Shown here one piece after another: positions 1-25,666 of a stretch of DNA of 43,419 nt. The number at the start of each line of letters is the position of its first letter. Positions within the stretch are counted from its first letter, which is position 1. Below the pieces are notes generated by a model. It saw only the letters and a program-made list of their open reading frames with translations. It had not been told where the DNA came from and searched no databases. Source of the stretch: Fidelibacterota bacterium (GTDB lineage: Bacteria > Fidelibacterota > UBA2242); contig JAQUKI010000001.1 of NCBI GenBank assembly GCA_028719225.1, positions 1-43,419 on the forward strand, read 5' to 3'. The translations under genes and the position numbers were made by a program.

Positions 1-456
1 CAGCCCCTCCCGCCGGCCTACCTTGACTGACAGATTGACTGTGACATCGAAAGCCGACGCGGCTGTGTGCCCGAACTGAGAAAGGCAGCCAATCCATTTC
101 AGATTCTCTCCGTAATTGGCCGGTGGATAATGAACGTTCACAGAATCAGTCCAGTCCGATGATTCGACAACTTGTCCGGAGCCGTTAGCGCTGGTATAAT
201 TTCCAGACAGCATCTGCCAGTCGTCCGGTACCAACATCCCCAGAAATCCTTTGGACGGATTGCTGGCATCCGGATTTGAAACCGTTAAACTAAGTTCGAC
301 GGCGATGGTGTCGTATGGTTGGGCGGTTCCCGGCTGAGATACCGAATTGATCTTGCAATTTGTCAACCCGAGCAAGGCCGGAATCATAAATATAAAGAGC
401 AGCAAGCGTCCGTCTGCTGGTTTTATTACGTCTTGAATAATTTTATTTCCGGTCAC
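1..456 (-). CDS. Putative lipoprotein of unknown function; 3' end cut by the window edge. Fourth ('payload') gene of cassette 1.
   Basis: Absent from the ORF track because it runs off the window. My own reverse-strand read from GTG at 456 (GAGGA just upstream) gives MTGNKIIQDVIKPADGRLLLFIFMIPALLGLTN-C, a signal peptide with a lipobox-like Cys. The frame stays open to position 1. Confidence 0.55.
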   Translation of the reverse strand, partial: MTGNKIIQDVIKPADGRLLLFIFMIPALLGLTNCKINSVSQPGTAQPYDTIAVELSLTVSNPDASNPSKGFLGMLVPDDWQMLSGNYTSANGSGQVVESSDWTDSVNVHYPPANYGENLKWIGCLSQFGHTAASAFDVTVNLSVKVGRREGL

Positions 457-518
457 TTTTCCTCGATATTATCAGATGTTTTGATACTACCATACTCATA
501 CCGTGCATATTCACCGAT

Positions 519-1463
519 TTACATTACCAATCTTAACGTGAACCGATGAGTCGCACCGAAGATTTCACCGTAGGTAACATAGGCATAATCGAACGTCGTC
601 CCGAAGCGGCCTACGTCCGGCAATTGGAGCCCGAATCCGGTTGTCAGATTATGTTCGCTACCATTAGCGCGATAACCGCCACGCAAAGCAAACATGTTGA
701 ATAACTCATACTCCAATCCGACGCAAATCCATTCATTGGCATCGGTCGGATGAACTAATTCCGCAGAGGCTGTCAAACGATTCAATCTGGTCTTGAAAAT
801 ATTGTCGCTGGCGCCAACCCTGAACAGCAATGGCATCCTGAATTGCTGATCGGCCAATGTTATATCCGAGCCGAAATGTTGCAGGGTGAATGCCAACTTC
901 AAATCACGGAAACCGGTATGGTAAATTGTGCCTATATCAAACAAAAGATTTCCAAAACTTCGATTATCCAAAACCTCCTGAGCGTATTTTAATTGTAAAC
1001 CGATAGTCAGTTTATCGGTATAACGACGTGCAACCGCCAAACCGACAAGATAATCCCCGGCGCCGATCATATTATCCGTTCCATTGGGAGCAAGCACAGT
1101 TGTCTCATTAAATTCCTGTATTCGAAAACTTATTGCGCTAACCCCAACAACAAATGATCTAATTGGAATTGCAACGGCGAAGGCATCATGATTGCTCTCC
1201 ACCAACCAGTTACTATGCGAAAAAGTGGCTGACGGTCTGGTGACAAATCCAATGCCGGCAACGTTCCAAAAAACGGAATTCACGTCATCTGAAAGGCTGG
1301 TAAAGGCTTCGCCCATGGCGGCTTCGCGCGCTCCGACGCCGATTTTCAGAAATTGCAGTCCTGCGCTCCCGGCTTTGGTAAAATCAAATCCATAATCAAA
1401 TTGTGCCTGAATATCACCTGCGAGAACCGATATGATAAACAAAGGTAGAAGTAATTTCTTCAT
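519..1463 (-). CDS. PorV/PorQ-family-like outer-membrane beta-barrel protein (cassette 1).
   Basis: Start trimmed to the internal ATG at 1463 (MKKLLLPLFIISVLAGDIQA|Q signal peptide). The longer ORF would overlap the upstream gene by 92 nt. Motifs LKIGVGAREAAMGEAFT and FWNVAGI match my recollection of PorV/PorQ (UPF0164-like) proteins. Clear paralog of 22600-23613. Confidence 0.7.
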   Translation of the reverse strand: MKKLLLPLFIISVLAGDIQAQFDYGFDFTKAGSAGLQFLKIGVGAREAAMGEAFTSLSDDVNSVFWNVAGIGFVTRPSATFSHSNWLVESNHDAFAVAIPIRSFVVGVSAISFRIQEFNETTVLAPNGTDNMIGAGDYLVGLAVARRYTDKLTIGLQLKYAQEVLDNRSFGNLLFDIGTIYHTGFRDLKLAFTLQHFGSDITLADQQFRMPLLFRVGASDNIFKTRLNRLTASAELVHPTDANEWICVGLEYELFNMFALRGGYRANGSEHNLTTGFGLQLPDVGRFGTTFDYAYVTYGEIFGATHRFTLRLVM

Positions 1464-1473
1464 ACATATCACC

Positions 1474-3348
1474 TTACTTGATAAGGACCAATGATCCTTT
1501 AGCAGTTCCGACGTTCGAATCGACCGTCCAGAAATAAATTCCCGGAGCCGTTCGCTGGCGGGCATCAGTCAACTGATCCCAAACTTCTTCACCGGATGCG
1601 GAATTGTTATGCTTCATGGTTCTAACCAATTCACCCGCTACCGTATAAATTCTAATTGTACAGATTGCCGGTAAATTTGTCCAAACTATTGAATTGGCAT
1701 CCGCTCTTGATGGAAATCCGGACGTTTCCCGAAAAGGATTCGGAAAAACCTTTACATGAAGTGTTGTTGTATCCGGAAAACTGGACGCAAGAACTGGTTC
1801 GCTATTGCGATTTGTTATCCAGCTCTCATTACCGGAACTGTCTTTTCCCGTAACCGCATAATAGTATCCAACACCCAGACTGATCGTATTATCGTCATAC
1901 TGCCAGCGACCGGTCTCTTCATTAAAATAGCGATCAATCGAAACTGTATTTCCCGGCTTAATACTTTTTACTTTGGCTGTCCATGGTCCATTAAAAGAAA
2001 TTTCACTCCGATAAAGGTTATATTCTTTGAAATCATTTCGGCCAGTAACCGGATCTAAATAGCTCGTTTCATTTGTATCCCAACTTATCGATATTTTTTT
2101 GCTGGAAGGCAGGGGCACAATTTCAATCTCCGGCGAGGGCGGCGGAACCGCAGTTATCCGGCAATCATTGTTATAAAGTGTCTTTGCATCATCAATCGTC
2201 TCCTGCAACATAGCCAATCCTTGTTTCAACTTTGCCTGTGCCGCATCTAATTCCGTCAACTGAATATCGATGCAATCTTTCAGCGGAAGGCCATCGACAG
2301 CTTCAACAATCGTTATCCGTATCGAATCGGAATCTTCAATATCATAAGGGCCACAGCTCATTATCATAATTGGAGCGACATGTTTTACCGGATCTGCTTG
2401 AAGAGATTTGTCGGTTCCATTCATTATCGCGTACAGACCGGCCCGGCTGGCTGTTCCGCTCAATGTAAAAGACTGACTTTGGCCGACAGTACTTGCCCAA
2501 AATACATTTGCCGGCTGATCTCTTCCATCCGAAGCCGGATCCGCTCCTAATAATGCATAACCGGCATATCCCGGCGTGCGGATTTCCTCAGCGTCATCCC
2601 AGTAATTACCCCAGTCCCACATATACTGCGTAAAATCGGCCATGTAGTTGTCATAGGCATAAAATAAAGCTCTCGTACTATCGTATGCCACCGATTCATC
2701 TTCACGGGTTTCTTCGTCTCCCCAGCCGTTATGAACGACCACGTCCTGATAACTCGGCCGGATTAAATAGACAAGCCCGAAATAAGCATCGGTCATTTTT
2801 GAACCCGTCAGGTTGCTCACGACATAATCAACGATGATCAGATTGTTAATATCGGGAAAACTCCAGGCTTTGCTGGTTCTCTTGACGTGAATGTTTTCCG
2901 GTGTCGTCCATTCTGCAACGATTGTCTGTTCCGGTTTATTGGGATCATAATCCGAACTTTCTACATAATTCTCGGTTTCGACTAAATCTTTAAAAGTACC
3001 GTAATTGACAGCAGATAAGGGTCCGTTTTCTGAAAAATTGATTGTCCCGCCGATGTCTTTCCATCCAACCCAAACTCCGGCACCCATCATATACGAACGT
3101 TGATCGTCCTTATCTCCTAAATCATGAGGACCGCCCGGCCAATCCATGCTGGGATAAAATTGGTACCGACTTGTAGGGCTTGGCGCGCCAATGGTTCCGT
3201 CGTCTTTCATCGTTTCCCAGAGTATGCCGCGATCATGAATTTTGAATGCGGCAGTTCGCTGCGCCTGAAGCGGTAAATACATAACTGTAATCGCGGAAAA
3301 TAGAATTATGCTCTTCTGAATATTTTTGGTCATAAGTAAATCCTTCAT
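1474..3348 (-). CDS. Uncharacterised secreted protein with an FN3-like module and a divergent T9SS C-terminal sorting domain (cassette 1).
   Basis: Signal peptide ends ...YLPLQA|Q. An alternative ATG at 3333 has an AAGGA Shine-Dalgarno site. FN3-like segment: ISISWD...YNLYRSE...YYYAVTGKD. C-terminus VFPNPF...TIRIYTVAGELV...APGIYFWTV...LVLIK resembles a type-A CTD. Paralog of 23615-25636. Confidence 0.7.
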   Translation of the reverse strand: MKDLLMTKNIQKSIILFSAITVMYLPLQAQRTAAFKIHDRGILWETMKDDGTIGAPSPTSRYQFYPSMDWPGGPHDLGDKDDQRSYMMGAGVWVGWKDIGGTINFSENGPLSAVNYGTFKDLVETENYVESSDYDPNKPEQTIVAEWTTPENIHVKRTSKAWSFPDINNLIIVDYVVSNLTGSKMTDAYFGLVYLIRPSYQDVVVHNGWGDEETREDESVAYDSTRALFYAYDNYMADFTQYMWDWGNYWDDAEEIRTPGYAGYALLGADPASDGRDQPANVFWASTVGQSQSFTLSGTASRAGLYAIMNGTDKSLQADPVKHVAPIMIMSCGPYDIEDSDSIRITIVEAVDGLPLKDCIDIQLTELDAAQAKLKQGLAMLQETIDDAKTLYNNDCRITAVPPPSPEIEIVPLPSSKKISISWDTNETSYLDPVTGRNDFKEYNLYRSEISFNGPWTAKVKSIKPGNTVSIDRYFNEETGRWQYDDNTISLGVGYYYAVTGKDSSGNESWITNRNSEPVLASSFPDTTTLHVKVFPNPFRETSGFPSRADANSIVWTNLPAICTIRIYTVAGELVRTMKHNNSASGEEVWDQLTDARQRTAPGIYFWTVDSNVGTAKGSLVLIK

Positions 3349-3361
3349 ATTACACCGGTTT

Positions 3362-6300
3362 TCAACGAAAACAGTATTTTATTCCAAAATATATTCTTCG
3401 GGGCGGGCCATAAGTTTGCCACGAAATATCATAACCATCTTCATCAACCGTTGTAATCGTACCATCGTTTATATAATTAGCCAGAACGTTATCAGAGTAA
3501 TATTCACCCAGAGAAATCAAATTTTTCCAGTTAAATAGGTTGGTGACACGAAAATAGGCATAAAACTGGTTATCCTTACCGATTATAAACGACTTCTCTA
3601 TTCGCAAATCTACCGTCTGATAGGCCGGATAACGATAGTTATCATAAGTATCCGGTGAATCCTCGGCATCAAGGTATGTGAATGTCTGACCGCTGATGTA
3701 TTGATACAAGATACTTGCGCTAAGATTTTTGCAGATCGGCGTAATAACCGGAATAGCTAAGCGTTCCGGATATTTCACATACAGACCTGTTCTTAGAGTA
3801 TGTGGGCGGCTGTAAGTGTTCTGCACCGGAATACGTTTGTTTACATCGGTATCCCATGTGTAAGTATATGTTCCGGATGAATCGATGTATATATATGCCG
3901 GACTCGCGCGACCGACTGTCGATTTCGAAAAACTGTAACTGACGTCAAACGTGAAATATTTAGAAAAAAGCGTCCTCAGAGTTACTTCAAAACCCCGTGC
4001 GTCTCCATAATCGCCGGGAAAGGAACTAACATAAAAAATTGTTTGAGATGTCTCATTTGTATAAGGATTATATCCATAAATGCGTCGATCAAACAGTTGT
4101 GAACGCGCATCCGTTTTATCGAACATGTCTTTATAATAAGCTGTCACATCCAAAACAGCCAGATTGCCGAAGTTTTGTTTGATGCCAACTTCGAACGATT
4201 TCGTCAGCTCCGGTTTTAACGGTTCCGCGGTTAAAAACACGACTCGCTCCGGGTCGCCAGACGTTGATGGAATGTGTGCCGCAACCCGGCCTTCGGCTAT
4301 TGCCGCAGCGTTTTCTGCTGCAACCGCTTCGATAAGATATTGAGAGCGTAGATAACTGAGTTCGAACATCCGGTCTAACGGTGGCATCTGATAAAAATGA
4401 CCGTAGCTGAAATGAAGTAAAGTATTCTCGGTTACCGGATACGAGACACCTAAACGCGGACTGAACATATGATAGGTCCTTGACTGTTCTCGCGGTTGAT
4501 TCAGTACGTTTTCGAATGAATATTTAACATTTCCGTTTGAATCAACCTGATCTCCGTCCGGATCCAAACTTGCCTCGTAGTCGGGATTCGCACTGAATTG
4601 GTAAATGTTGTTTGTGGCAAACCATTCATAATTCGGATCGAAATAATCATATCGCAATCCGAAATTTAGAATCATGCTTTCGAATTCCATTTTATTTTGA
4701 ATGTATGTCGCAAATTGGATGGGATAGTAAGTCTCGTTCAAACCGCGATTCATCCATAATTCAGGATTTTCCTCTCTATCAATATATGAAGGATAGCGAT
4801 AAGATTTTAACTCGGCTTCTTTATTATAACGAAACTCAAAGCCTGTTTTTAAAAAATTATATGAATTCCACTGCCAATTCAAACTGCCGACCAAAGACAA
4901 ATCGCCGGTTTTCCAATGCTGGTCATAAACAAATGACCAGGCGTCGAACGGTTCAACATAAGTATCATAAGACAAAGTATCATAACGTTGCCAGCCCCAA
5001 ATATCGGGGTTGGAACTAACGCCAAGTTCTGTATATTTGCTCGGATATTCCTTAATATCCACCGAATAATAACTCAATTTCAGATCATAGTTCATTTTAT
5101 TTGAAATCACATGATCCCAGAGAAGGCTAGCACTAAATGTTTCCGTGTCCAGTAACGATCCCCATCCGCGGTAAAATTTGGCCTGATTGACAAATTGACC
5201 TTTTTCCTGCATGGTCGAACCTTCGTCCAAATTATAAAATCCAGTCAGGCGCAATTTCATATTCGAGTGAACCTGAAAGGCAAAATTATAGGTCACGTTG
5301 GTAAGATCGTGCGAATTTCTCGGATGCGGAAGTGTGTATGCCTCACTTTTGAGCTGGGATGCCACGAAAAATGTACTCTTTAGGTCGCCAATATTAAAAA
5401 GCAAACCGCCGACTGAAAAATAAAAATTATAGTCTGGAATTTTCCGATAATCATAGATGTTTTTTCTTCGATAATCCGTCATCCAGTCCGGATCTAATAC
5501 GCCCAATCCAAGCGAGTCATTATGGTAGTTATAAGCGTAATCAAGCCACCAAATATCGTCGGGAGTGTTTGTGTGATCGCGATATTCTTTCTGATATTTA
5601 GACCACCACTTATCATCCGATGCGGACATTTGCGAGATAAATTCCGCTGAATCTTCTGCCGTCGGAGAAGAACTCCCAAATGACGACAACCAATTGTCAT
5701 ATTCATCGGATAGGTTTTCCAAATGATTCTGATACTGATTCGCGGTCGGATGGGCATAAAGATATGTGCCAAAATGATGTTGTCCGGCTAAACCATATTC
5801 ATATTCAAGTGAAAATTTTAACTTCTCTTTGCCTTCTTTGGTTACAACGTTTACAATTCCAGACTGAGCTTCACCGTATTCAGCATTAAATCCGGAGGTT
5901 ATGATTTGTAATTCCTGAATAGAATGCAAATTTACATCCGTAAATGAACCGCCTTGATCTGCGCGGCCCTCCATTAGAGAAGCGGCTCGTACGCCGTCGA
6001 TGTACCATTTGACTTCACCCTGATCTCCACCTCGGATAGAATACCGGCTTTCACCACGACCGGCTTCATTCGGACCAGAAATAACCGGGGCCGGATCGAA
6101 ATAAACACCGGTTTGAATCATCATAACTTCTTTCGCATTGCTAAAAGGAAGTTGGGTTAATTCGTCTATCTCGACAAATTGGGTGCTGTTGGTGACATCT
6201 TTTTGAATTACCGGCCTTTTGGCAACCACTACAACCTCTTCGCCCTCAATTGCCTGAGTTTCCAATTCCGCGTTGACCATTGTAGTATGATCAGTCATCA

Positions 6301-6592
6301 CTTTAATATCCGTGATCGTCATTTTTTTATATCCAATAATGGATGCATTGAGGGAATACACACCCGGTGGAACAGACAAAATGAAATATTCACCGTTTTG
6401 GTCTGTAGCAGCTCCGAATTCAGTACCTTCCAAAATGATGTTCACTCCGACCAGAACCAGACCGGTTGTTTTATCGGTAATCACTCCGTGCAATTTTCCG
6501 GTAACACCACCCAAACAGATTGTGGTCATCAGGTACAGCAGTACTACAATCGAAAATATTTTGTTCGTCGTCCGCTCCATATCGTCTCCCAT
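3362..6592 (-). CDS. TonB-dependent-receptor-like outer-membrane barrel with N-terminal CarboxypepD_reg domain (SusC-like architecture; cassette 1).
   Basis: 1076 aa with a signal peptide. GKLHGVITD...VGVNIILEGTEFGAATDQNGEYFILSVPPGVYSL is a CarboxypepD_reg fold. EEVVVVA is a TonB-box-like motif as seen in SusC. Plug-like region (IRGG, DGV) followed by a long Y/F/N/D-rich barrel. Paralog of 25667-28483. Confidence 0.85.
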   Translation of the reverse strand: MGDDMERTTNKIFSIVVLLYLMTTICLGGVTGKLHGVITDKTTGLVLVGVNIILEGTEFGAATDQNGEYFILSVPPGVYSLNASIIGYKKMTITDIKVMTDHTTMVNAELETQAIEGEEVVVVAKRPVIQKDVTNSTQFVEIDELTQLPFSNAKEVMMIQTGVYFDPAPVISGPNEAGRGESRYSIRGGDQGEVKWYIDGVRAASLMEGRADQGGSFTDVNLHSIQELQIITSGFNAEYGEAQSGIVNVVTKEGKEKLKFSLEYEYGLAGQHHFGTYLYAHPTANQYQNHLENLSDEYDNWLSSFGSSSPTAEDSAEFISQMSASDDKWWSKYQKEYRDHTNTPDDIWWLDYAYNYHNDSLGLGVLDPDWMTDYRRKNIYDYRKIPDYNFYFSVGGLLFNIGDLKSTFFVASQLKSEAYTLPHPRNSHDLTNVTYNFAFQVHSNMKLRLTGFYNLDEGSTMQEKGQFVNQAKFYRGWGSLLDTETFSASLLWDHVISNKMNYDLKLSYYSVDIKEYPSKYTELGVSSNPDIWGWQRYDTLSYDTYVEPFDAWSFVYDQHWKTGDLSLVGSLNWQWNSYNFLKTGFEFRYNKEAELKSYRYPSYIDREENPELWMNRGLNETYYPIQFATYIQNKMEFESMILNFGLRYDYFDPNYEWFATNNIYQFSANPDYEASLDPDGDQVDSNGNVKYSFENVLNQPREQSRTYHMFSPRLGVSYPVTENTLLHFSYGHFYQMPPLDRMFELSYLRSQYLIEAVAAENAAAIAEGRVAAHIPSTSGDPERVVFLTAEPLKPELTKSFEVGIKQNFGNLAVLDVTAYYKDMFDKTDARSQLFDRRIYGYNPYTNETSQTIFYVSSFPGDYGDARGFEVTLRTLFSKYFTFDVSYSFSKSTVGRASPAYIYIDSSGTYTYTWDTDVNKRIPVQNTYSRPHTLRTGLYVKYPERLAIPVITPICKNLSASILYQYISGQTFTYLDAEDSPDTYDNYRYPAYQTVDLRIEKSFIIGKDNQFYAYFRVTNLFNWKNLISLGEYYSDNVLANYINDGTITTVDEDGYDISWQTYGPPRRIYFGIKYCFR

Positions 6593-6616
6593 TGATTTTA
6601 CAATTGTCAGACCATT

Positions 6617-7324
6617 TCACATATATTGATCGATAATATCCCGGATGATTTTAAACCGAGTTTCCATGATTTCGATGACCTCTTTTTCATCACCCGCTTT
6701 CAAGGCCGTGAGCAAATTACGATGCAATTCGTAATCTTTTTCGTGCGGCATGTGAGAATTGAGCACTTCTAGTTGGTCATCCGAATAAAGGTTGGTAATT
6801 GCTATCACGATTTCAAAAAGGATCGTATTATTAGCCGCCTTCCGCATCATGTTTTCAATTTCCAGATAATTCAATGCACATTTAACATAATCATCGGGAT
6901 AATTTTCAGATTTCTTCAACAGTTCTTCAAACCGGGTGAAATGCTCGGCGGTCAGATTTGGCATCGCCAGATGAATGATACGGCTTTCAATGGCTATCCG
7001 CGCATCTATCAGTTCGAGCAATTTTTCCTTTTTTAAGGATTCTTCAACAATGACCGGGTTCGGTAAAAATAATCGATTAAAATATTTTCCGACAAACATG
7101 CCACTGCCGTGTTTTACCTCGACCGAATTAATGGTTTCGAGTTTCTTAATCGCCTCACGCAGAGTTGGTACACCGACCTCAAACATGCGCGCCAGTTCCG
7201 TCGCTGAAGGTAACCGATCGCCTTGTTTATAACCTTGTTCGGTCACGAAAATCCGCAATTTTTTAACAATTCCATCGGGTAAGGATTGTTTACGGATGGG
7301 CATTATGCCATTTGTTTCATTCAT
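6617..7324 (-). CDS. GntR-family transcriptional regulator, FadR-like C-terminal domain.
   Basis: wHTH signature RLPSATELARMFEVGVPTLREAIKKLE with an all-helical C-terminal domain. Start set at ATG 7324 (GGAGATAAAA upstream), giving a typical ~235 aa protein. ATG 7444 (AGGAG+7) is an alternative. Only 24 nt separates it from the TBDR-like gene on the same strand. Confidence 0.85.
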   Translation of the reverse strand: MNETNGIMPIRKQSLPDGIVKKLRIFVTEQGYKQGDRLPSATELARMFEVGVPTLREAIKKLETINSVEVKHGSGMFVGKYFNRLFLPNPVIVEESLKKEKLLELIDARIAIESRIIHLAMPNLTAEHFTRFEELLKKSENYPDDYVKCALNYLEIENMMRKAANNTILFEIVIAITNLYSDDQLEVLNSHMPHEKDYELHRNLLTALKAGDEKEVIEIMETRFKIIRDIIDQYM

Positions 7325-7501
7325 TTTATCTCCAAAATTGTGCCGGTTTGATATCGAGTCAAGATACTCGAGGAGTAATCTATGAATTCTTTTGAGCGCG
7401 AAACCTGAAGTAATTTTTTCCTTAAGATTACCGGAACCATCCAATTGCTCCTACGATACTCATCAACTCATAAAGTTATCAAAAGATATTAAGACTTTGT
7501 A

Positions 7502-7530
7502 AGTGTAAAGTTTTTTTTAATGATTTGCAA
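7502..7530 (-). promoter_or_regulatory. Candidate sigma70-type promoter for the GntR gene.
   Basis: The reverse strand reads TTGCAA, a 17-nt spacer, then TACACT. Pattern match only. Confidence 0.3.
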
Positions 7531-7596
7531 GAAATATTTCCGCGTCAGGACAAAAGGATTAGCGGCAGGTTATTTCCGAAGCGTATGTTTTCGTTT

Positions 7597-8676
7597 TTAA
7601 TAAATTCCTAATTCTTTCGCCAGATTGATGATTTTTTCAAAATCCAGCAAACTGACAGATGAGGGCACCGAATGATCGGATGAAAAAATATATCCGCCAT
7701 CCTCTTTTAAAATCGGTACAAGTCGTTTCATCTCCGCCATAATCTGCTCCGGATCGTTCCAAAGAACAGCATTGATGCCGCCGTGCAAAACAAGGTCTTT
7801 CCCATATTCTTTCTTTAAAAAGAGTGGATCCATTCCCGCCTTGACTTCGAGCGGATTCAGCGCATCCAATCCCATAGAAATCAATTCCGGAACGAACGGA
7901 TTGATGTCGCCGCAGGAATGCAAATGTGCCTTGATTCCCTTCGCATGCGCCCAATCAATTGCTCTTTGATGAAATGGTTTGAGTAGATTTCGGTACATTT
8001 TCAGCGAAAAAAACTGGCTGTTTTTGTAGCCCATATCATCCGGCCACCAAATGCTATCGAAGTGATAACCCGCATCCCAAACCATGTCCAGCAAAGTCAG
8101 ATTGACTTCCAGCAAGTGACCGAACATATCGCGGCACCAATTCGGATTCTCGACTAAAGCAAATAAAAACCGTTCCGTTCCGACGATCCATGAATGAGTC
8201 ACATCAAATCCAAACCATAGATCGGCGCAAATCCAGTTGCCTTTTTCGCGCCACCGTTGAAAATCTTGCTCCAGTTCTTTCCAACTGATACGAATCGGAT
8301 CGGGTGTAATTTGCTCTTTCGCACGTTGCCATGACGCGGGATCGACGATAGTAAAATTCAGAAACTCCGGCGTGGAATTCTGCCAGAGCCATTCTTTTTG
8401 TGTTGCGCCCCATTTCGTTGTGTAAATTTTGTATTGCTCAGTTACTTCTATGGTTTGCTCAGGATAACACGGAGAATTGTCAACCTTGATATGTTCGACA
8501 CGGTCTATTCCAAAGAAATCAATCCAGTTAGTATCTTTCGGCAAACCCTCTTTTTCCCAGCGGGTGAGAGTGGCTTTCCATGGAGTGTCGATAATTGGAA
8601 TACGGTCGGCATGACGATGTTCGAACATACGTAAAAATCTTTCTCGGCTGGTCATTTCATCCATCCTGATCCTCAT
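7597..8676 (-). CDS. Uroporphyrinogen-decarboxylase (URO-D)/MtaA-like family protein.
   Basis: 359 aa. N-terminus ERFLRMFEHRHADRIPI and HLHSCGD (His-x-Cys motif of MtaA/MtbA-type Zn methyltransferases) are typical of the URO-D superfamily. The start is ambiguous among three ATGs at 8676, 8664 and 8655. Confidence 0.75.
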   Translation of the reverse strand: MRIRMDEMTSRERFLRMFEHRHADRIPIIDTPWKATLTRWEKEGLPKDTNWIDFFGIDRVEHIKVDNSPCYPEQTIEVTEQYKIYTTKWGATQKEWLWQNSTPEFLNFTIVDPASWQRAKEQITPDPIRISWKELEQDFQRWREKGNWICADLWFGFDVTHSWIVGTERFLFALVENPNWCRDMFGHLLEVNLTLLDMVWDAGYHFDSIWWPDDMGYKNSQFFSLKMYRNLLKPFHQRAIDWAHAKGIKAHLHSCGDINPFVPELISMGLDALNPLEVKAGMDPLFLKKEYGKDLVLHGGINAVLWNDPEQIMAEMKRLVPILKEDGGYIFSSDHSVPSSVSLLDFEKIINLAKELGIY

Positions 8677-8804
8677 TCTATCTTTTCCAAATCATTGATT
8701 ACAACAGTACAAACCATAACAAAACATTTTTTAATAAATCATATGTAATGACAATATAGAGCAACATTTGAATAAAATGAAGATGTTTTTCGTCGTCATG
8801 ACTA

Positions 8805-8833
8805 TTTACAGATAGATGAATAAACGGTAAGTT
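8805..8833 (+). promoter_or_regulatory. Candidate sigma70-type promoter for the 8858 operon.
   Basis: TTTACA, a 17-nt spacer, then TAAGTT, about 25 nt upstream of the AAGGAG Shine-Dalgarno site and ATG. Pattern match only. Confidence 0.35.
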
Positions 8834-8857
8834 TGTGTTGTTTATTAAGGAGAAGAA

Positions 8858-17266: not shown

Positions 17267-19773
17267 ATGAAAAAAATATTAACGTATTTTACAGGAATTA
17301 TTTTGTTGTCGGCAATTACTACAGCCGCTGATCTGTCCGTCATACCGACACCACAAAGCGTCCATTTCCAGCCGGAATCGTTCGGTTTTACCGAACTCAA
17401 TTCGGTTCAGATCGTTTTGGGCGATAGCATCACAGCGGATGACGAAGGCGTTAAAATTCTCCGCGAAGCCATCGTCAATTCATTCGGAATTCAAACAAAC
17501 GTTGTCCAGACCGGTGATAACTCCGCGCTGGCATCTATTAACCTCGTTATCGCTTCATCTGATACCGGCGCAAACAAAATATCCGCTTATGAATTTACGC
17601 CGGAAATGACGGAAGAGGGCTATTTTCTCGACATTTTGCCGAACAAGATCACCATCGCGGCAAAGAATCCGACCGGTTTGTTCTATGGAATGATGACGCT
17701 GACACAGATGATCCGCTCCGCCGAAAAAGGAAAAATTCCCTGCGTTCTCATCAAAGATTTTCCGTCGATGAAATGGCGCGGCGTCTCGGATGATTTCAGC
17801 CGCGGGCAAGTTTCAACGATGGACAATTTCAAGCAAATTATCCGCTTTCTGGCCGAAGACAAGATCAACGTGTTCATTCCGTACATGGAAGACGTCATTC
17901 AGCTGGAAAAATATCCGGACATCGGCGTCGGGCGCGGCGCACTTTCCAAAGATGAAATCCGCGAGATTAGGCGTATGCCAAACGACTTCACGTCCAGATC
18001 GTTCCGGTGTTTCAGACGCTCGGCCATTTTGAAAATATTCTCACGATGCCGAACTACGAAAAATTCGCCGAATATCCCGGCGCGGGTTCGCTGAATTCAA
18101 CAAATCCCGAATCGGATAAATTTCTGTTCGATCTGCTCGACGAGGTGATTCCACTGTTTGAATCGGAATATTTCCACATCGGAGCCGACGAATCGTGGGA
18201 TGTCGGTCTGGGCGCTAATCGCGATCTGGTGGCAAAAGACGGCATTTCAAAAATCCACGCACGGCATTATCAAAAAGTGTACGACAAGGTAAAATCCTAC
18301 GGGAAAAACGTGATGATGTACGGCGACATTATCCTGCATCATCCCGACATCCTCAATCAAATTCCAAAAGACATTATCATCGTCGATTGGCACTATTCGG
18401 CGACCGATAATTATCCATCGGTCAAACAATTCGCCGACTCCGGATTTCAGGTCATCGTTTCGCCGGGAATTCAAAATTGGCTGAATGTGATCCCGAATTA
18501 CGACGCCGCGTGGATCAACATTTCCAACATTAATCTCGAAGGCTACAAGATGAAGGCGCTCGGTTCCATCAACTCGACGTGGGGCGATTACGGCGGGCCG
18601 AATTTTCGGGAATGGAATTATCTCGGTTATGCCTATGGCGCGGAGTCTTCGTGGAATACGCCGGGCATGAATGGAGAAACGATTAACCAACGGTTTTTTA
18701 AACAGTTTTTCGGATGCGAGGATTCCCGGCTGTCATCGCTTCTAATTCATTTGAACGAAATCCCGAACCTGACAAATTACAAGGAAATCTTTCGCCAGCC
18801 GTTTTTCCAAACGGATGAATCCGCCGGAAAAATCCTGCTCCGTAGCCGCCAACTCATAGAAAACGGGAACGCCGCGTTGGTACTGATTGATGAACTCCGT
18901 CGGATCGTTAAAACGAATGTCTATTATCTCGATTACTATGAATTCGCCGCAAAAATGAGCGTTTTTATGGGCGATCGCCTGAAATTCACGCGCGACATCA
19001 GCCGGATCGGCATGCTCAAATTGGAATCGACGTTAACCGAGGATGAATGGAATCTTCTTCAGCAAAATTGCTCGGCGCTGATCGAAGGCCTGAACGATCT
19101 GGAGCATTCGTTCAAATCGCTCTGGCTGAGGACGAACCGGCCGGACAATCTTTCACGCGTGCTCAACCTGTTCCGCGTTCAGATGGCCTACCTTGAATCG
19201 GCGCAGGAAAATCTGGCCGCGCATTCGGTTCAGATTCCGACGACGCTCTCCTCAAAATTTATCACCGCAAAACAGAATCCCGATTCCGAAAAGCCTGCGC
19301 CGGCGTTTCTCCGGAAAACATTCGAACTCGAGCGGCTTCACGGTTTAAAAAGCGCCAACCTGCAAATGATTGCCAATTCAGAGGCGAATATTTCCATCAA
19401 CGGTAAATCCGTCGGTCGGATCACGGCGACGAAATCGCTTTCGCTGCTCGTCGAAAATCAGCGCATCGGCTGGTGGGACGTGCTTGACAAATTAGAAAAA
19501 GGAAAGAACATCATCACCGTTGCAGTTCAAGGTTACAAGCCGAAAATGCCTTCGACGGCCAATGTCTATCTCGAACTCCAGTTTGAGGATGGCCAAACGA
19601 TGATCATTCAATCCGACGGGACGTGGGAATCCGCGACGCAAGTCAAAGACGGCTGGCAACTGGCACGCGATTCCGGCGGAAAGTGGAACAATGCTCTGAT
19701 TTTCGATAAATATCCGTGGCGGATTTCCGCTCCGATGTTCGGGAAAGGATTTGCCTCGCAGATCGAGTTTTAA
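17267..19773 (+). pseudogene. GH20 beta-N-acetylhexosaminidase with a C-terminal galactose-binding-like domain, interrupted by a 1-nt frameshift near 17969.
   Basis: ORFs 17267-18094 and 18007-19773 are two halves of one gene. The first has a signal peptide plus IPTPQSV and FPSMKWRG. The second frame reads AYAKRLHVQIVPVFQTLGHFE...HIGADE (GH20 catalytic pair). Only 2 nt (17969-17970) lie between EI(17963-17968) and AYAK(17971-). Confidence 0.7.
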
Positions 19774-19844: not shown

Positions 19845-22553
19845 TTATTTGACCATCGTCATCCGTTTGACTTTTGTAACATTGCCGTTTTTCACAGCAT
19901 ACAAATAAACACCTGTGGACATTGCCGAACCATTCCGATCTAAACCATTCCACGTAATCGTATAAGTTCCGGTTGACAATTTCTTGTTGACCAGCGTAAC
20001 AACTTCTTTTCCCAGCAAGTCGTAAATCGTCAACGTAACAACCTTTTCGCTTGGAACGTCAAAAACGATGTTCGTCGTGGCGTTGAACGGATTCGGATAA
20101 TTCTGTTGCAAACGGAAGTTATCCAAACTGGTGATATGATTCGAACCGGGATCAATTGCCGATCCGGCACTCTGATTTGTATAACGGGCAACATTTCCCT
20201 GATATGTAAAGAAATAACCAAAATCGTTATCCGCGACTACAGCGCCTAGGAAATCATTACCAGACAATGCAGAGGCAACGGGAACCGGTGTCCATGAATC
20301 ACCCAGATTATCCGTGTAGAAAACTTCGCCATAATCACAAAATGCCATAATCCGACTGGTGCCGGGAACAGCAACAACCGCGTTGACCCAACCATCAGCG
20401 GAAACCGGTGAACTGACAAGGTCCCAGGTTTCGCCGCCGTCTGTAGTAACAAATGGAACGCCATCGATTGAGCTATCGTCGCCGCCATTGATACCGACAG
20501 CCATACCATCAGAATCGCTCGTGAAAGTTATTCCACGGATTACTTTTGCACAACCGGTCGGGACCTCAAAACTTTCCCAATTAACACCGGCATCATACGA
20601 CCGATAAACATAGGCTGTGTCTGAAGAAGATGTTGTGCCGGTAAACCAAACCGACTCGCCATTATTCCAGACAGCGGTGCCCCATGAATAGATCGCCTGA
20701 GACGCTGACATATAATCAACACCGGTTATTTCAGTCCAGGTTGCGCCCTTATCTATAGACCGTGCGAAATAGAGATCGCCATTAGCCGCGCCGTCACCCA
20801 AAGCAACTGCAACACTGTCATTCAGAACCCTGATTCCATCGAACCAGCCGGCGCCACTGAAGACCGGATCGGCCAGATAGGTGTGTACAAGAGTCCAATC
20901 CTGGCCGCCGTTTGTTGTTCTATAGATTTCACCAACAGCAGTAGCAACAACAGCGATATTGGCATCGAAGGCATCTACCTGTGCCGCACGCCCGGGAATA
21001 GCCGTAGTATTGTGTGTAAACGTTTTGCCACCATCAGTGGAACGGAAAACATAGGTCACTTTGTTGGTACCGTCCACGCCGCAAAACCAGATGACATTGC
21101 CATTATTCAGAGCGCGACCCGGTTTGAACAATATACCGCTGGGAGCCGCTCCGTTGAATAATACTTCGGGAGCTACGATCAGACTATCTGCACCACTCGA
21201 AGTAACCGTAGCATCGAGAATTACGATTGGTGCGGATCCCTCAGCCGTGAAAACATCCGGAGCGTATGAAGTACTGGATGTATATAAAACTTCTGCCTCG
21301 GGATCGTCATCGATATTGGCAATATTCAGAACCGACCAAACACCGGTTGCTTCCGTCGCCGAATAGAGCGAATCGATCAGCATCAGTTCATAATTCGCCG
21401 GATTTGTAATGTCACCGCCTTTATAAGAAACGCAGGTGATCAAACCGTTCGGAGTTGCATCGCGTGAACCAAATATGAAATCGAGATAGCCGTCGCCATC
21501 AATATCGCCACTTGCACCACCCCATGGGCCGCGCGCTCCTGTCGGCCAATATGCCGAGAGATTAAACAACTCTGTCGCTTTTAATGTATCGGCAACTTCC
21601 TGTAGGAGATAAACTCCCTTTTTCGTATCATCGCCCCAATCATAAACGGCGCAAACGATTTCTTTCGTACCGTCTTTGTCCAAATCGACACCCTTTGCAG
21701 ATTGAACCGGCGCGCCACCGGCCAAAGGACTTAGCGCGGTGTAACTCCATCCGCTATTAAAAGATAATTTCGAGATTTCTGTCTCCGAGAAAAAATAGGC
21801 GTTGTTTCCAGTGACGGCAACATCCCATTTATTTTGAACCGTGGAGGTCATACTCCAATCTTTTCCGCTGGCTTCCAGCGTCCAGGTTTCCGAACCATCT
21901 GCATTATCCGGAATATTGCTTACAGAACAAACCCCGACATAATAACCACCGTTGTTACCTGCCCGATCGGCGAAAATTACCTCGGTCGTTCCATCTCCGT
22001 CAATATCAACCGCTTCAGCGTCGATTGGACGGATATTGATACTTTGTTCAGTGGTAATTGTCCATGTCGAGTTCGGCTTATAGCCGCCGGCGCCGTCATC
22101 GACCCCAAGGATATCACCGGTTCCCTGTTCATAAACCGCAATCCGAACGGGGTTGGTGGAAACGGAAAAAGCATTAACCGGCATCCAGGTTATTTCTTCT
22201 TTCTGATCGTTATCCAGATCTGTCAGTAGAAGCGCCGGCCACGTGTTCTGGTAAGCCGGATCGAGTTTGGCCTGCCATACTATATCCCAGTTCGCGCCAT
22301 TTTTTTCCAATTTGTAAATGCGCGGAATAACTTCGCTGGCACCGTCATTCCAATTATCATTTACCAGATAGATTTCGGTTTTTCCATCTTTGTCCAAATC
22401 GACACCGGAAATGATGCCCCCAATACCGCCATTGTTCAATGTGGCTTCGGGAATGTCGATCACACCACTGCGGGTGAAACCGGTTATCCCGGCGAAGCTG
22501 AAAGAAAACAGCGTCAGGACTAACACGCTAAAAATCGTAACAACTTTCTTCAT
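19845..22553 (-). CDS. T9SS cargo protein with FG-GAP/VCBS-like repeats, a BNR/Asp-box propeller and a type-A CTD (payload gene of cassette 2).
   Basis: AGGAGG Shine-Dalgarno site. About six DxDxDG repeats (VDIDGDGTTEV, GDIDGDGYLDF...). Six Asp-box repeats (STDGGKTFT, TTNGGQDWT, SIDKGATWT, SYDAGVNWE, TTDGGETWD, LGDSWT). Canonical CTD QNYPNPFNATTNIVF...LTIYDLLGKEV...STGVYLY. Confidence 0.8.
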   Translation of the reverse strand: MKKVVTIFSVLVLTLFSFSFAGITGFTRSGVIDIPEATLNNGGIGGIISGVDLDKDGKTEIYLVNDNWNDGASEVIPRIYKLEKNGANWDIVWQAKLDPAYQNTWPALLLTDLDNDQKEEITWMPVNAFSVSTNPVRIAVYEQGTGDILGVDDGAGGYKPNSTWTITTEQSINIRPIDAEAVDIDGDGTTEVIFADRAGNNGGYYVGVCSVSNIPDNADGSETWTLEASGKDWSMTSTVQNKWDVAVTGNNAYFFSETEISKLSFNSGWSYTALSPLAGGAPVQSAKGVDLDKDGTKEIVCAVYDWGDDTKKGVYLLQEVADTLKATELFNLSAYWPTGARGPWGGASGDIDGDGYLDFIFGSRDATPNGLITCVSYKGGDITNPANYELMLIDSLYSATEATGVWSVLNIANIDDDPEAEVLYTSSTSYAPDVFTAEGSAPIVILDATVTSSGADSLIVAPEVLFNGAAPSGILFKPGRALNNGNVIWFCGVDGTNKVTYVFRSTDGGKTFTHNTTAIPGRAAQVDAFDANIAVVATAVGEIYRTTNGGQDWTLVHTYLADPVFSGAGWFDGIRVLNDSVAVALGDGAANGDLYFARSIDKGATWTEITGVDYMSASQAIYSWGTAVWNNGESVWFTGTTSSSDTAYVYRSYDAGVNWESFEVPTGCAKVIRGITFTSDSDGMAVGINGGDDSSIDGVPFVTTDGGETWDLVSSPVSADGWVNAVVAVPGTSRIMAFCDYGEVFYTDNLGDSWTPVPVASALSGNDFLGAVVADNDFGYFFTYQGNVARYTNQSAGSAIDPGSNHITSLDNFRLQQNYPNPFNATTNIVFDVPSEKVVTLTIYDLLGKEVVTLVNKKLSTGTYTITWNGLDRNGSAMSTGVYLYAVKNGNVTKVKRMTMVK

Positions 22554-22599
22554 GAAAACCTCCTAGTTTTGTTATTCGTGATCCTTATACATTTGTCAT

Positions 22600-23613
22600 T
22601 CAAAAAGAAACTCCGAGAGATACTCGGTGAGCGCCTTTTAGTGCGCCCAGATCGGAGTAAGCATAATCTGCGTTAATTCCCAAAGCATTTCCCAACCCAA
22701 GCCGAACTCCGGCGCCAAATGTCAAACCGGCTTCATCCGTATTAATTTTGTAACCGCCGCGCAGGCTGAACATCTTCAGAAACGAATATTCGAGACCAAG
22801 ATTATATTGCTCGAGATTATTGTTCGGATGAATCATGTCCGCCGCGACCATGACTGTATGGTTAGTTTTTTCAAGCAGGTTCATACTGATTCCAAAGCGG
22901 AAATTCACCGGCAGGGAGTAGGTTTCATATTTTTTTTCTTTATTAGCGTTCTCAGAATCACTGTAATCCCAGTAAGTACCACTGAACCGAACTTCCGGAG
23001 CGAAGTGCAGAATTGACATACCGAGTCTCAATCCATGAAAATTGGTTCGGTAAACCGTACCCAAATCCATCGCCCATGTCGAATAACCATGACCATAGTA
23101 ATCTTCATGTACTAGCTTGGTGGTCAAACCAACCGAAACGCGATCAGTCAGAAAACGGGCGTAGGTCAAACCGATAGCATAATTGGTCAGGTTGAACATT
23201 TCGCCATTGCCTTCCGGCGTTTCGATTGTGGTAACCTCCATGTCATCCGTCATCAGGTAGACGCCGCTGATAGCGAGGGTTCCAATTCGTCCAAGTTTCA
23301 TCGAATAAGCGAGACCGGCGAATGTAATGTCGGCCGGCCACTTATTATAAGAGCTGAACAAATTGCGATCATTGGCATCTACTAATCCGGCAGGATTCCA
23401 GAAGACAGCGCTGGCATCGTTCGCGACAACGGTAAAGGCTTCGCCCATGCCAGCCGCGCGGGCGCCAACGCCGATTTCCAGAAATTGGGCTACCGATGTG
23501 CCAACCGGAGCAAATTCTGCGGCAAAACTAACCGGCAAAATCAACAGGATGATTATCAGGGATACAGGAAGTATATTTTTGCGCATTGTTCTATTTTCCT
23601 CTCTGATTAGCAT
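22600..23613 (-). CDS. PorV/PorQ-family-like outer-membrane beta-barrel protein (cassette 2).
   Basis: Motifs LEIGVGARAAGMGEAFT and FWNPAGL, with a terminal Phe (LGVSF). The start may instead be ATG 23586 (MRKNILPV...SFA|A). Paralog of 519-1463. Confidence 0.7.
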   Translation of the reverse strand: MLIREENRTMRKNILPVSLIIILLILPVSFAAEFAPVGTSVAQFLEIGVGARAAGMGEAFTVVANDASAVFWNPAGLVDANDRNLFSSYNKWPADITFAGLAYSMKLGRIGTLAISGVYLMTDDMEVTTIETPEGNGEMFNLTNYAIGLTYARFLTDRVSVGLTTKLVHEDYYGHGYSTWAMDLGTVYRTNFHGLRLGMSILHFAPEVRFSGTYWDYSDSENANKEKKYETYSLPVNFRFGISMNLLEKTNHTVMVAADMIHPNNNLEQYNLGLEYSFLKMFSLRGGYKINTDEAGLTFGAGVRLGLGNALGINADYAYSDLGALKGAHRVSLGVSF

Positions 23614-23614
23614 G

Positions 23615-25636: not shown

Positions 25637-25666
25637 TAAAAAACCTCCATATTACTCATGGGAGCG

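Follow-up and report, generated by a model that had tools for sequence, protein, structure and literature searches.

Glycan-utilisation operons that are headed by a GntR/FadR-type repressor are known, and here we describe a predicted case in 43,419 nucleotides of DNA (the window) from a Fidelibacterota bacterium (assembly GCA_028719225.1). The window covers the first 43 kb of contig C1, which belongs to a genome of 2.56 Mb in 288 contigs that is about 90% complete. On its minus strand it encodes a GntR regulator followed by a trio consisting of a TonB-dependent transporter (TBDR), a middle protein without a family name and a PorV-like barrel (cassette copy 1). Among the described systems, the gntRKPZ operon of Bacillus subtilis and the dgoRKADT operon of E. 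coli have a GntR repressor gene in first position and a palindromic operator overlapping the promoter, and the substrate or sugar acid acts as inducer. Copy 1 resembles them as a predicted repressor-first operon for catabolism and transport, but they deal with monosaccharide acids and involve neither outer-membrane uptake nor secreted enzymes.

Closer in scope is the repressor AusR, which belongs to the FadR subfamily and controls, in Zobellia galactanivorans, a polysaccharide utilisation locus (PUL) for alginate that includes a TonB-dependent transporter. AusR is released by oligosaccharides, and its operators are located at or just after the promoter, with one site at its own promoter (PMC7641319). 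The shared features are a GntR repressor with an FCD domain and a PUL with a TonB-dependent transporter, although in our case repression is predicted from sequence. There are also differences. Here the regulator is encoded in the operon itself, as its first gene, instead of in a unit of its own, the transporter is accompanied by the middle protein and the PorV-like barrel instead of a SusD partner, the palindrome has 7-nt arms with GT and AC 9 nt apart instead of TKGT-N2-3-ACMA, and the promoter is sigma70-like and not of the Bacteroidota -7/-33 type.

With the SusC/SusD PULs of Bacteroidota, which are co-regulated, the locus shares a TonB-dependent transporter, surface proteins that bind or cleave glycans, and glycoside hydrolases, for which co-regulation is here predicted. 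However, it lacks SusD, its TBDR scores under the SusC cut-off, an inner-membrane ATP-binding cassette (ABC) importer belongs to the block, and the regulator is of the GntR type instead of a hybrid two-component system, SusR or a pair of extracytoplasmic function sigma factor and anti-sigma factor. In the D-arabinan locus PUL42 of Dysgonomonas gadei, DUF4185/GH183 proteins act as endo-D-arabinofuranases (PMC10115798). Both loci combine secreted and intracellular DUF4185 enzymes with a transporter-linked glycan system, but here the DUF4185 proteins, the activity of which is predicted only, are paired with alpha-mannosidases of family GH38, and a GH172 enzyme was not seen. A last comparison concerns the URO-D-like protein encoded upstream of gntR (URO-D359). 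It shares the TIM-barrel fold of MtaA/CmuA and HemE and carries an H-x-C motif which, as judged by eye, falls where MtaA has its zinc site, but it is only 12-16% identical to these proteins, contains an inserted beta-subdomain, has no corrinoid partner and is found in a context of sugar catabolism.

Compared with these systems, the new elements are a predicted operator for the GntR orthogroup and its link to the SusD-less trio, the exchange of FCD and HutC regulators at one position, and a URO-D-like family, so far unstudied, that was apparently recruited to the regulon. The trio of TBDR, unnamed protein and PorV-like barrel gains a regulatory and metabolic context, and one of its subtypes is predicted to be the entry gate of a GntR-repressed system with ABC importer, GH38 and DUF4185 enzymes. 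The predicted operator may be used for regulon mapping in uncultured bacteria of the FCB group. The focus of interest moves from corrinoid chemistry to a widely transferred URO-D-like family that accompanies sugar-uptake genes, and this family is the part that could prove new biochemistry.

The probable gntR-led operon and its predicted operator

Copy 1 is probably the 5' part of a long repressor-controlled glycan-utilisation operon headed by gntR. We observed the gene content, the synteny, a conserved promoter and operator and the co-occurrence of this operator with the GntR orthogroup, and from these we infer binding, repression, co-transcription, effector and substrate. The effector is probably sugar-derived. 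Six minus-strand open reading frames (ORFs) were confirmed and, with the annotated starts, they are separated by gaps of 272, 24, 13, 10 and 62 nt. The gene order, strands and gaps that a first-pass annotation of this DNA had given for copy 1 agree with the recomputed coordinates. The genes and the control elements in front of gntR are:

7597 to 8676, minus strand: URO-D-like protein URO-D359, 359 amino acids (Pfam URO-D PF01208, E 2.4e-14, residues 165-355 only)
7502 to 7530, minus strand: predicted promoter of sigma70 type for the operon headed by gntR (-35 TTGCAA at 7530-7525, 17 nt, -10 TACACT at 7507-7502)
7471 to 7491, minus strand: predicted GntR operator TAATATCTTTTGATAACTTTA, a degenerate form of tAAAGTCAT-N3-ATGACTTTa, at about +5 to +25 of the inferred start
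6617 to 7324, minus strand: FadR-like GntR regulator (winged helix-turn-helix and FCD domain), 235 amino acids, the operon's first gene
3362 to 6592, minus strand: TonB-dependent transporter (CarboxypepD_reg, Plug and barrel), not of the SusC class
1474 to 3348, minus strand: middle gene of the trio, 624 amino acids, unnamed family, weak T9SS-type (type IX secretion system) C-terminal tail
519 to 1463, minus strand: outer-membrane barrel of the PorV/PorQ family (NF033709, 169.7 bits, cut-off 90)
1 to 456, minus strand: N-terminal 152 amino acids of a protein with DUF4961, DUF4185 (GH183 family) and a T9SS C-terminal sorting domain (CTD), truncated by the contig end (DUF4961 E 3.8e-5, sub-threshold)

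The regulator consists of a GntR domain (PF00392, E 3.1e-14, 52.8 bits with a cut-off of 27, residues 18-78) and an FCD domain (PF07729, E 3.2e-9, 37.7 bits with a cut-off of 24.3, residues 104-221), and its closest solved relatives, 6az6 and NanR, are both FCD-type. The recognition helix PTLREAIKKLE is nearly invariant over orthologs of 29-77% overall identity. A search with the middle protein as query and one genome per species retrieved 34 orthologous loci (49-86% identity) from Neomarinimicrobiota, Ignavibacteria/Melioribacteraceae, Calditrichaceae, KSB1 and metagenome-assembled genomes (MAGs) of Bacteroidota. When the 5' end of the block was readable, a same-strand GntR-family regulator stood at its head in 26 of 29 loci, the exceptions being L021, L032 and L033. 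Thus, the linkage of GntR to TBDR, for which a comparison of genomes had been suggested in the first-pass annotation, recurs in orthologous cassettes. The head regulator is FCD-type in the window and in eight further loci (L001-L004, L029, L031, L015, L024). In 18 loci, mostly from Ignavibacteria, it is HutC/UTRA-type and ABC genes are located between regulator and TBDR; such blocks include L005-L012, L014, L016, L020, L022, L026-L028 and L034, and Melioribacter roseus is among the carriers of the HutC-type version. The position of the regulator was thus kept, and its effector domain was exchanged between lineages. In 18 loci the TBDR gene follows gntR with a gap of between -8 and about 100 nt, and the order is kept across several phyla. 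This gap is too short for a promoter, which favours a single operon. An F-H pair, which contributes to the metal site of other FCD regulators, is retained in L003, L029, L015 and L024, and I/V-E-N stands in its place in the window, L002, L031 and L004 (columns 155-160 of alignment A3, around residues 153-158 of the window GntR).

The spacers between the URO-D and gntR genes of the window, L001, L002, L004, L031 and L003 were alignable only in one block of about 90 nt, and the same block was present upstream of the URO-D gene in L002 and L031. From the eight aligned promoter regions of six genomes it can be seen that the block contains, at invariant spacing, CTTGnnA as -35 element and, beyond a spacer of 17 nt, TAyAmT as -10 element, which is followed after about 10 nt by the palindrome TAAAGTCA-N5-TGACTTTA. 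A generic promoter scan missed the promoter at 7530-7502, which was recognised through the ortholog alignment. The operator, too, was detected only through ortholog comparison. The FadR-type operators that the first-pass annotation had proposed to look for in 7325-7596 and 8677-8857 did not turn up, since neither region contained a strict match or an inverted repeat. The consensus site of L002 reads TAAAGTCATCAAATAACTTTA, and the window operator aligns column for column with the strong palindromes in the orthologous promoters.

A weight matrix of the palindrome, applied to the 34 loci, matched FCD-type loci only and always upstream of gntR, and no comparable match was found at the regulator promoters of the HutC-type loci. 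In an independent test on 80 loci, which were retrieved with an alignment of the FCD regulators, each of the 18 loci that combine an FCD-type GntR with the trio had the palindrome at a distance of no more than about 200 nt upstream of gntR. Ten of these 18 loci had not been part of matrix training and scored 21.5-29.7 bits. Several of them came from genomes of 68-71% GC, in which chance is a very unlikely source of such an AT-rich 21-mer. Elsewhere in the roughly 0.85 Mb of loci, strong matches were restricted to URO-D promoters and one site in L156. Wherever a promoter was recognisable (L015, L024, L029, L004), the palindrome followed the -10 element, and a predicted operator at this place has the position of a repressor site. 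Changes in the half-sites were not compensatory, which suggests a protein-binding site rather than an RNA hairpin.

Between gntR and the last gene the spacing is tight and no terminator is predicted, which argues for one operon. The head regulator in 26 of 29 loci, the conserved promoter and palindrome and the near-invariant recognition helix point in the same direction. With the operator in 18 of 18 loci and no terminator-like site predicted in 6500-7600, copy 1 is very probably a regulated operon, as the first-pass annotation had suggested.

The wider glycan locus and the predicted mode of action

In the 34 loci, the trio of TBDR, middle protein and PorV-like barrel was always accompanied by a sugar-binding protein (SBP) of the SBP_bac_1 family, two ABC permeases, a DUF4961-DUF4185-CTD protein (about 650 amino acids) and one or more GH38 alpha-mannosidases (about 1,150 amino acids). 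A further DUF4185 protein and an esterase were often encoded nearby. The gene order in L001-L004 and L029 was regulator, TBDR, middle protein, PorV-like barrel, DUF4961-DUF4185-CTD protein, SBP, two permeases and GH38. Two other contigs of the same genome carry the matching pieces. Contig C192 encodes the C-terminal 221 amino acids of a DUF4185-CTD protein, an SBP 85% identical to that of L001, the two permeases and a GH38 with signal peptide, of which the N-terminus is present. Contig C122 encodes the remainder of a GH38, a protein with DUF4961 and CTD, a cytoplasmic DUF4185 protein, a URO-D-family protein and a second, cytoplasmic GH38. This URO-D paralog (L102:2121-3083, minus strand, 320 amino acids, no signal peptide) lies between the cytoplasmic DUF4185 and GH38 genes. 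The copy-1 locus would then continue on C192 and C122, and these contigs together with L001-L004 and L029 are the reason for our reading of the locus.

The DUF4185 family corresponds to GH183, and its sole characterised activity is that of an endo-D-arabinofuranase on mycobacterial arabinogalactan and lipoarabinomannan (PMC10115798). Because of this activity and the presence of GH38, the substrate is likely to be a glycan with alpha-mannosides, the breakdown of which also requires an endo-glycanase of the DUF4185 type. Possibly it is arabinomannan-like, a lead that comes from family names only. Thus, the handle on the substrate is the rest of the operon, with its GH183-family enzyme, sugar ABC importer and GH38, and not the adjacent URO-D/MtaA chemistry that the first-pass annotation had favoured. 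We also considered DUF4185 as the methylmannose-polysaccharide hydrolase MmpH, which would have provided a link between URO-D and O-demethylation. This candidate was rejected, since the fold of MmpH is an (alpha/alpha)6 barrel (PMC9883506).

Judged from family membership, signal peptides and gene order, the system might work as follows. Transcription would start at the sigma70-type promoter 7530-7502 in the spacer between the URO-D gene and gntR and would proceed through gntR, TBDR, middle, PorV-like and DUF4961-DUF4185-CTD genes, the last of which runs off the contig end. By synteny, the genes for the sugar-binding protein, the two ABC permeases, the exported GH38 and the DUF4961-CTD protein would follow, and those for the cytoplasmic DUF4185 protein, the URO-D paralog and the cytoplasmic GH38 would come last. 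A dimer of the FCD-type GntR is expected to bind the palindrome 7491-7471 just downstream of the -10 element and to repress its own operon. Basal expression would place the T9SS-sorted DUF4185 enzyme and the complex of TBDR, middle protein and PorV-like barrel at the cell surface. Oligosaccharides may then enter via the TBDR, be trimmed by the exported GH38 and be carried into the cytoplasm by the ABC system, where the DUF4185, URO-D-like and GH38 enzymes would complete the breakdown. Finally, a product of glycan breakdown would bind to the FCD domain and GntR would leave the operator.

Several observations weigh against this picture. The join of the window with C192 and C122 comes from synteny and not from sequence overlap, and the substrate assignment is based on family names alone. 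Among the 18 loci, the window operator is the weakest, with 4/7 matching positions in the left and 6/7 in the right arm. It scores 18-20 bits (18.2 when its own site is left out of the matrix, which is the top match of the genome), and this is inside the range of the best matches in shuffled genomes (17-21 bits). An inverted-repeat search found nothing at the site. The FadR consensus TKGT-N2-3-ACMA is not matched, as GT and AC are 9 nt apart, and the operator fits only the loose GntR rule NyGTNxACNy. Moreover, a weak sigma70-like match (9/12) in the 3' end of gntR at 6675-6648 could be an internal promoter. Near-identical DNA was found only in landfill and groundwater DNA metagenomes and in no RNA run. 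The credibility of the window operator comes from its position and its alignment with the strong ortholog sites, and no second credible operator site was found in the window's own genome.

It would be in line with the lowest-scoring operator of the 18 loci if the regulatory link were decaying in the window and in L001, with the left half-site and the URO-D operator lost and the operon leaky or constitutive. The lack of an operator in 8677-8857, despite its presence before the URO-D gene in L002, L031 and L004, and the in-frame stop in the L001 URO-D ortholog also fit such a decay. However, GntR is intact, it is 94% identical between window and L001 and its recognition helix is unchanged. Furthermore, the promoter block, the right half-site (6/7) and an upstream AAAGTC repeat are identical in both genomes. 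We therefore regard decay as unlikely.

Quite improbable is a situation in which GntR controls only itself (and the URO-D gene in the relatives), while the TBDR cassette uses its own promoter in the 3' end of gntR and is constitutive or otherwise controlled. The internal match at 6675-6648, the degraded window operator and a strict FadR-type box between gntR and TBDR, as a possible sign of separate control, speak for it, but sigma70-like matches of this quality are no better than chance (27 found, 20.7 expected), the order of gntR and TBDR with its short gaps is kept over several phyla, and the gap box is missing in six of eight FCD loci. The box in question is:

6604 to 6614, minus strand: strict FadR-subfamily box TGGTCTGACAA (TKGT-N3-ACMA) in the gap between gntR and TBDR, a perfect consensus match

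It is one of three strict matches in the 43-kb window. A function as roadblock operator was rejected, since the box is found only in the window and in the 86-94% identical L001; it is probably a chance match.

Between the operator and gntR there is a further element:

7321 to 7440, minus strand: leader of about 170 nt with a possible upstream ORF (uORF) of 39 codons (good Shine-Dalgarno AGGAG at 7452-7448, ATG at 7440, TGA at 7323-7321)

The uORF stop overlaps the gntR start at 7324 (ATGA). Overlapping uORFs were readable in L001 and L002 with unrelated peptides and there was none in L004, so the peptide is not conserved. An RNA element in the leader was rejected, as there was no Rfam match, the fold was no better than that of shuffled sequences (z 0.10) and the palindrome showed no compensatory changes.

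The URO-D-like gene

URO-D359 scored far below the cut-offs of the NCBIfam models for MtaA/CmuA (bits/cut-off: 23.8/235.4 for TIGR01463, 36/244 for NF004889 and 23.8/400 for NF040654; overall 24-36 bits with cut-offs of 235-600). There was no match to the HemE equivalog TIGR01464, for which the neighbouring MtaA-Trx protein scores 69.9, and a pairwise BLAST comparison with this neighbour gave nothing significant. A sequence search against the PDB gave nothing significant either and only a fold search placed the protein. For the AlphaFold2 model (pLDDT 94) the best PDB folds were MtaA (4ay7) and UroD with TM-scores of 0.65-0.69 and 12-16% identity, and the model is about equally distant from both. 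The protein is predicted to be cytoplasmic. A run of beta-strands at about residues 60-108 forms an inserted subdomain in the N-terminal portion, for which the URO-D profile gives no match. Conserved residues are H253-x-C255, H335 and D213/D214, and His335 is nearly invariant in 31 sequences. If the zinc motif of MtaA is H-x-C...C, as we assume, the position of the third Cys, placed by eye, is occupied by His335.

Orthologs of URO-D359 with 72-93% identity are encoded directly upstream of gntR in L001, L002, L004 and L031. In the ortholog of L001 (L001:4240-5325) one stop codon interrupts the reading frame where Gln117 would be encoded, so that it represents a pseudogene or an assembly error. 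Distant paralogs lie beside the regulator in L003 (three genes, in an operon with a MalK-type ATPase), L004, L023 and L110. Copies of the operator were found before the URO-D gene in L002 and L031, and, in L004, before a pair of GH13 and URO-D genes. In L003 the operator lies in the divergent region that both sides share, and in L110 it is next to two URO-D genes and the gene of a cytoplasmic GH38. Upstream of the window's own URO-D gene (8677-8857) no operator was detected. URO-D-family genes are thus predicted members of the regulon in the Neomarinimicrobiota-like clade, and the connection between regulator and URO-D gene drawn in the first-pass annotation is borne out by the operator copies in the relatives, but not by the region 8677-8857 of the window. 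The region L110:4842-11996 contains a 52%-identical GntR ortholog and the same operator between two URO-D-family genes and has no TBDR trio; the cytoplasmic GH38 is encoded about 1 kb further downstream.

Across phyla, 66 orthologs of URO-D359 (39-87% identity, all but one at least 49%) were found in Chloroflexota, Planctomycetota, Lentisphaerota, Verrucomicrobiota, KSB1, Spirochaetota, Armatimonadota and Clostridia. The genes that recur next to them were AraC regulators, sets of SBP_bac_1, permease and ABC-ATPase genes, major facilitator superfamily transporters, DUF1349, GFO/IDH/MocA oxidoreductases, BadF-type ATPases and GH2, and no corrinoid protein occurred among the annotated recurrent neighbour clusters. 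The window contains no B12-binding domain, and the PF02310 matches of the genome are located on contigs C12, C123 and C224. Divergent from the URO-D gene, a pair of genes for an MtaA-Trx protein and a CobW-type protein was found only in the window and in L001, and L002 and L031 have a MalK-type ATPase gene in its place. The segment 8858-12231 encodes the MtaA-Trx fusion, the CobW-type GTPase and a QueG/RdhA-like Fe-S protein with a twin-arginine (Tat) signal. It is common only to the window and L001, and its genes appear unrelated to the glycan operon.

These data bear on the effector, which the first-pass annotation had expected to relate to URO-D/MtaA-type chemistry. Accordingly, the regulator might sense a methyl, corrinoid or zinc-thiol metabolite and the cassette might import the substrate of that chemistry. 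Support for this comes from the URO-D-family genes that adjoin the GntR orthogroup in the window, L001, L002, L031, L004, L003 and L110, from the operator that URO-D genes carry or share in five of these seven, from the extra paralog on C122 and from the proteins with B12-binding domains encoded elsewhere in the genome. However, GntR, operator and trio occur without a URO-D gene in Calditrichia, Rhodothermales, Ignavibacteriales and L029 (as seen in the fetched loci, which extend to about 10 kb on either side at most, depending on the contig). Furthermore, the MtaA-Trx/CobW pair is limited to the window and L001 and the locus has no corrinoid protein, URO-D359 stays far under the cut-offs for MtaA/CmuA and HemE and has, as judged by eye, no Cys in the position of the third ligand, and its orthologs elsewhere are associated with sugar transporters and glycosidases. 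An effector or substrate from MtaA-type chemistry is for these reasons highly doubtful, and a glycan-derived effector of the gntR-led operon remains our preferred reading.

URO-D359 is a candidate for an uncharacterised accessory enzyme of a sugar pathway. A literature search for URO-D-family proteins in glycan loci found nothing. As a tentative suggestion, URO-D359, its 66 orthologs and the paralogs might form an uncharacterised branch of the URO-D/MtaA/MetE proteins that acts on carbohydrates and is GntR-co-regulated in Neomarinimicrobiota. Such a branch could, for example, be a metal-dependent enzyme that removes O-methyl groups, or carboxyl groups by decarboxylation, from imported oligosaccharides, and its co-regulated partner would be the SusD-less uptake machine of the TonB/PorV type.

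Cassette proteins, gene starts and neighbouring genes

The TBDR scored 72.2 bits with the SusC model TIGR04056 (cut-off 368) and does not belong to the SusC/RagA class. Its orthologs in the 34 loci are 44-85% identical. No SusD/RagB protein was found among the scanned genes of the window or of the orthologous loci. The gene after the TBDR gene has no Pfam family, and the FN3 domain that had been assigned to the middle protein was not confirmed. Matches of this protein to PorZ, PorU and CTD tails were weak (E 3.5e-5 to 1.7e-3), and it is 29% identical to its copy-2 paralog across the C-terminal 270 amino acids. The PorV-like barrel passes the family model NF033709, and with the equivalog models it scored 58 for PorV (cut-off 250) and 61 for PorQ (cut-off 220). 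The fragment of the last gene is 80% identical to residues 1-153 of the L001 ortholog (669 amino acids), which carries DUF4185 (71.9 bits, gathering score 39.5) and a T9SS CTD. Of this fourth gene, no more than the DUF4961 part is contained in the window, and with DUF4961, DUF4185 and CTD in the full-length ortholog the earlier label as lipoprotein is undemonstrated. The fragment on C192 contributes the CTD and a sub-threshold match to DUF5005 (18.9 bits, cut-off 29.6).

Inspection of the gene starts suggested two corrections. The TBDR gene probably starts at ATG 6580, because the Shine-Dalgarno sequence GGGAG (6590-6586) is kept in L002 and L031, and the gap to gntR would then be 36 nt. The URO-D gene probably starts at 8664 rather than at 8676, because the consensus N-terminus of the orthologs is MxxMT..ERF. 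The last gene has a GTG start with a conserved Shine-Dalgarno sequence GAGGAA.

The nearest relative, L001, is a MAG of Candidatus Neomarinimicrobiota with 76-94% protein identity over the shared genes. Copy 2 of the cassette (19845-28483) has no adjacent regulator and no operator match, and the view that the two copies are differently wired holds. In 17267-19773 (plus strand), a GH20 hexosaminidase is encoded by two overlapping ORFs, one for the GH20b domain (275 amino acids) and one for the catalytic domain (588 amino acids). The catalytic ORF begins at profile position 125, and the split of this gene suggests a frameshift or a pseudogene.

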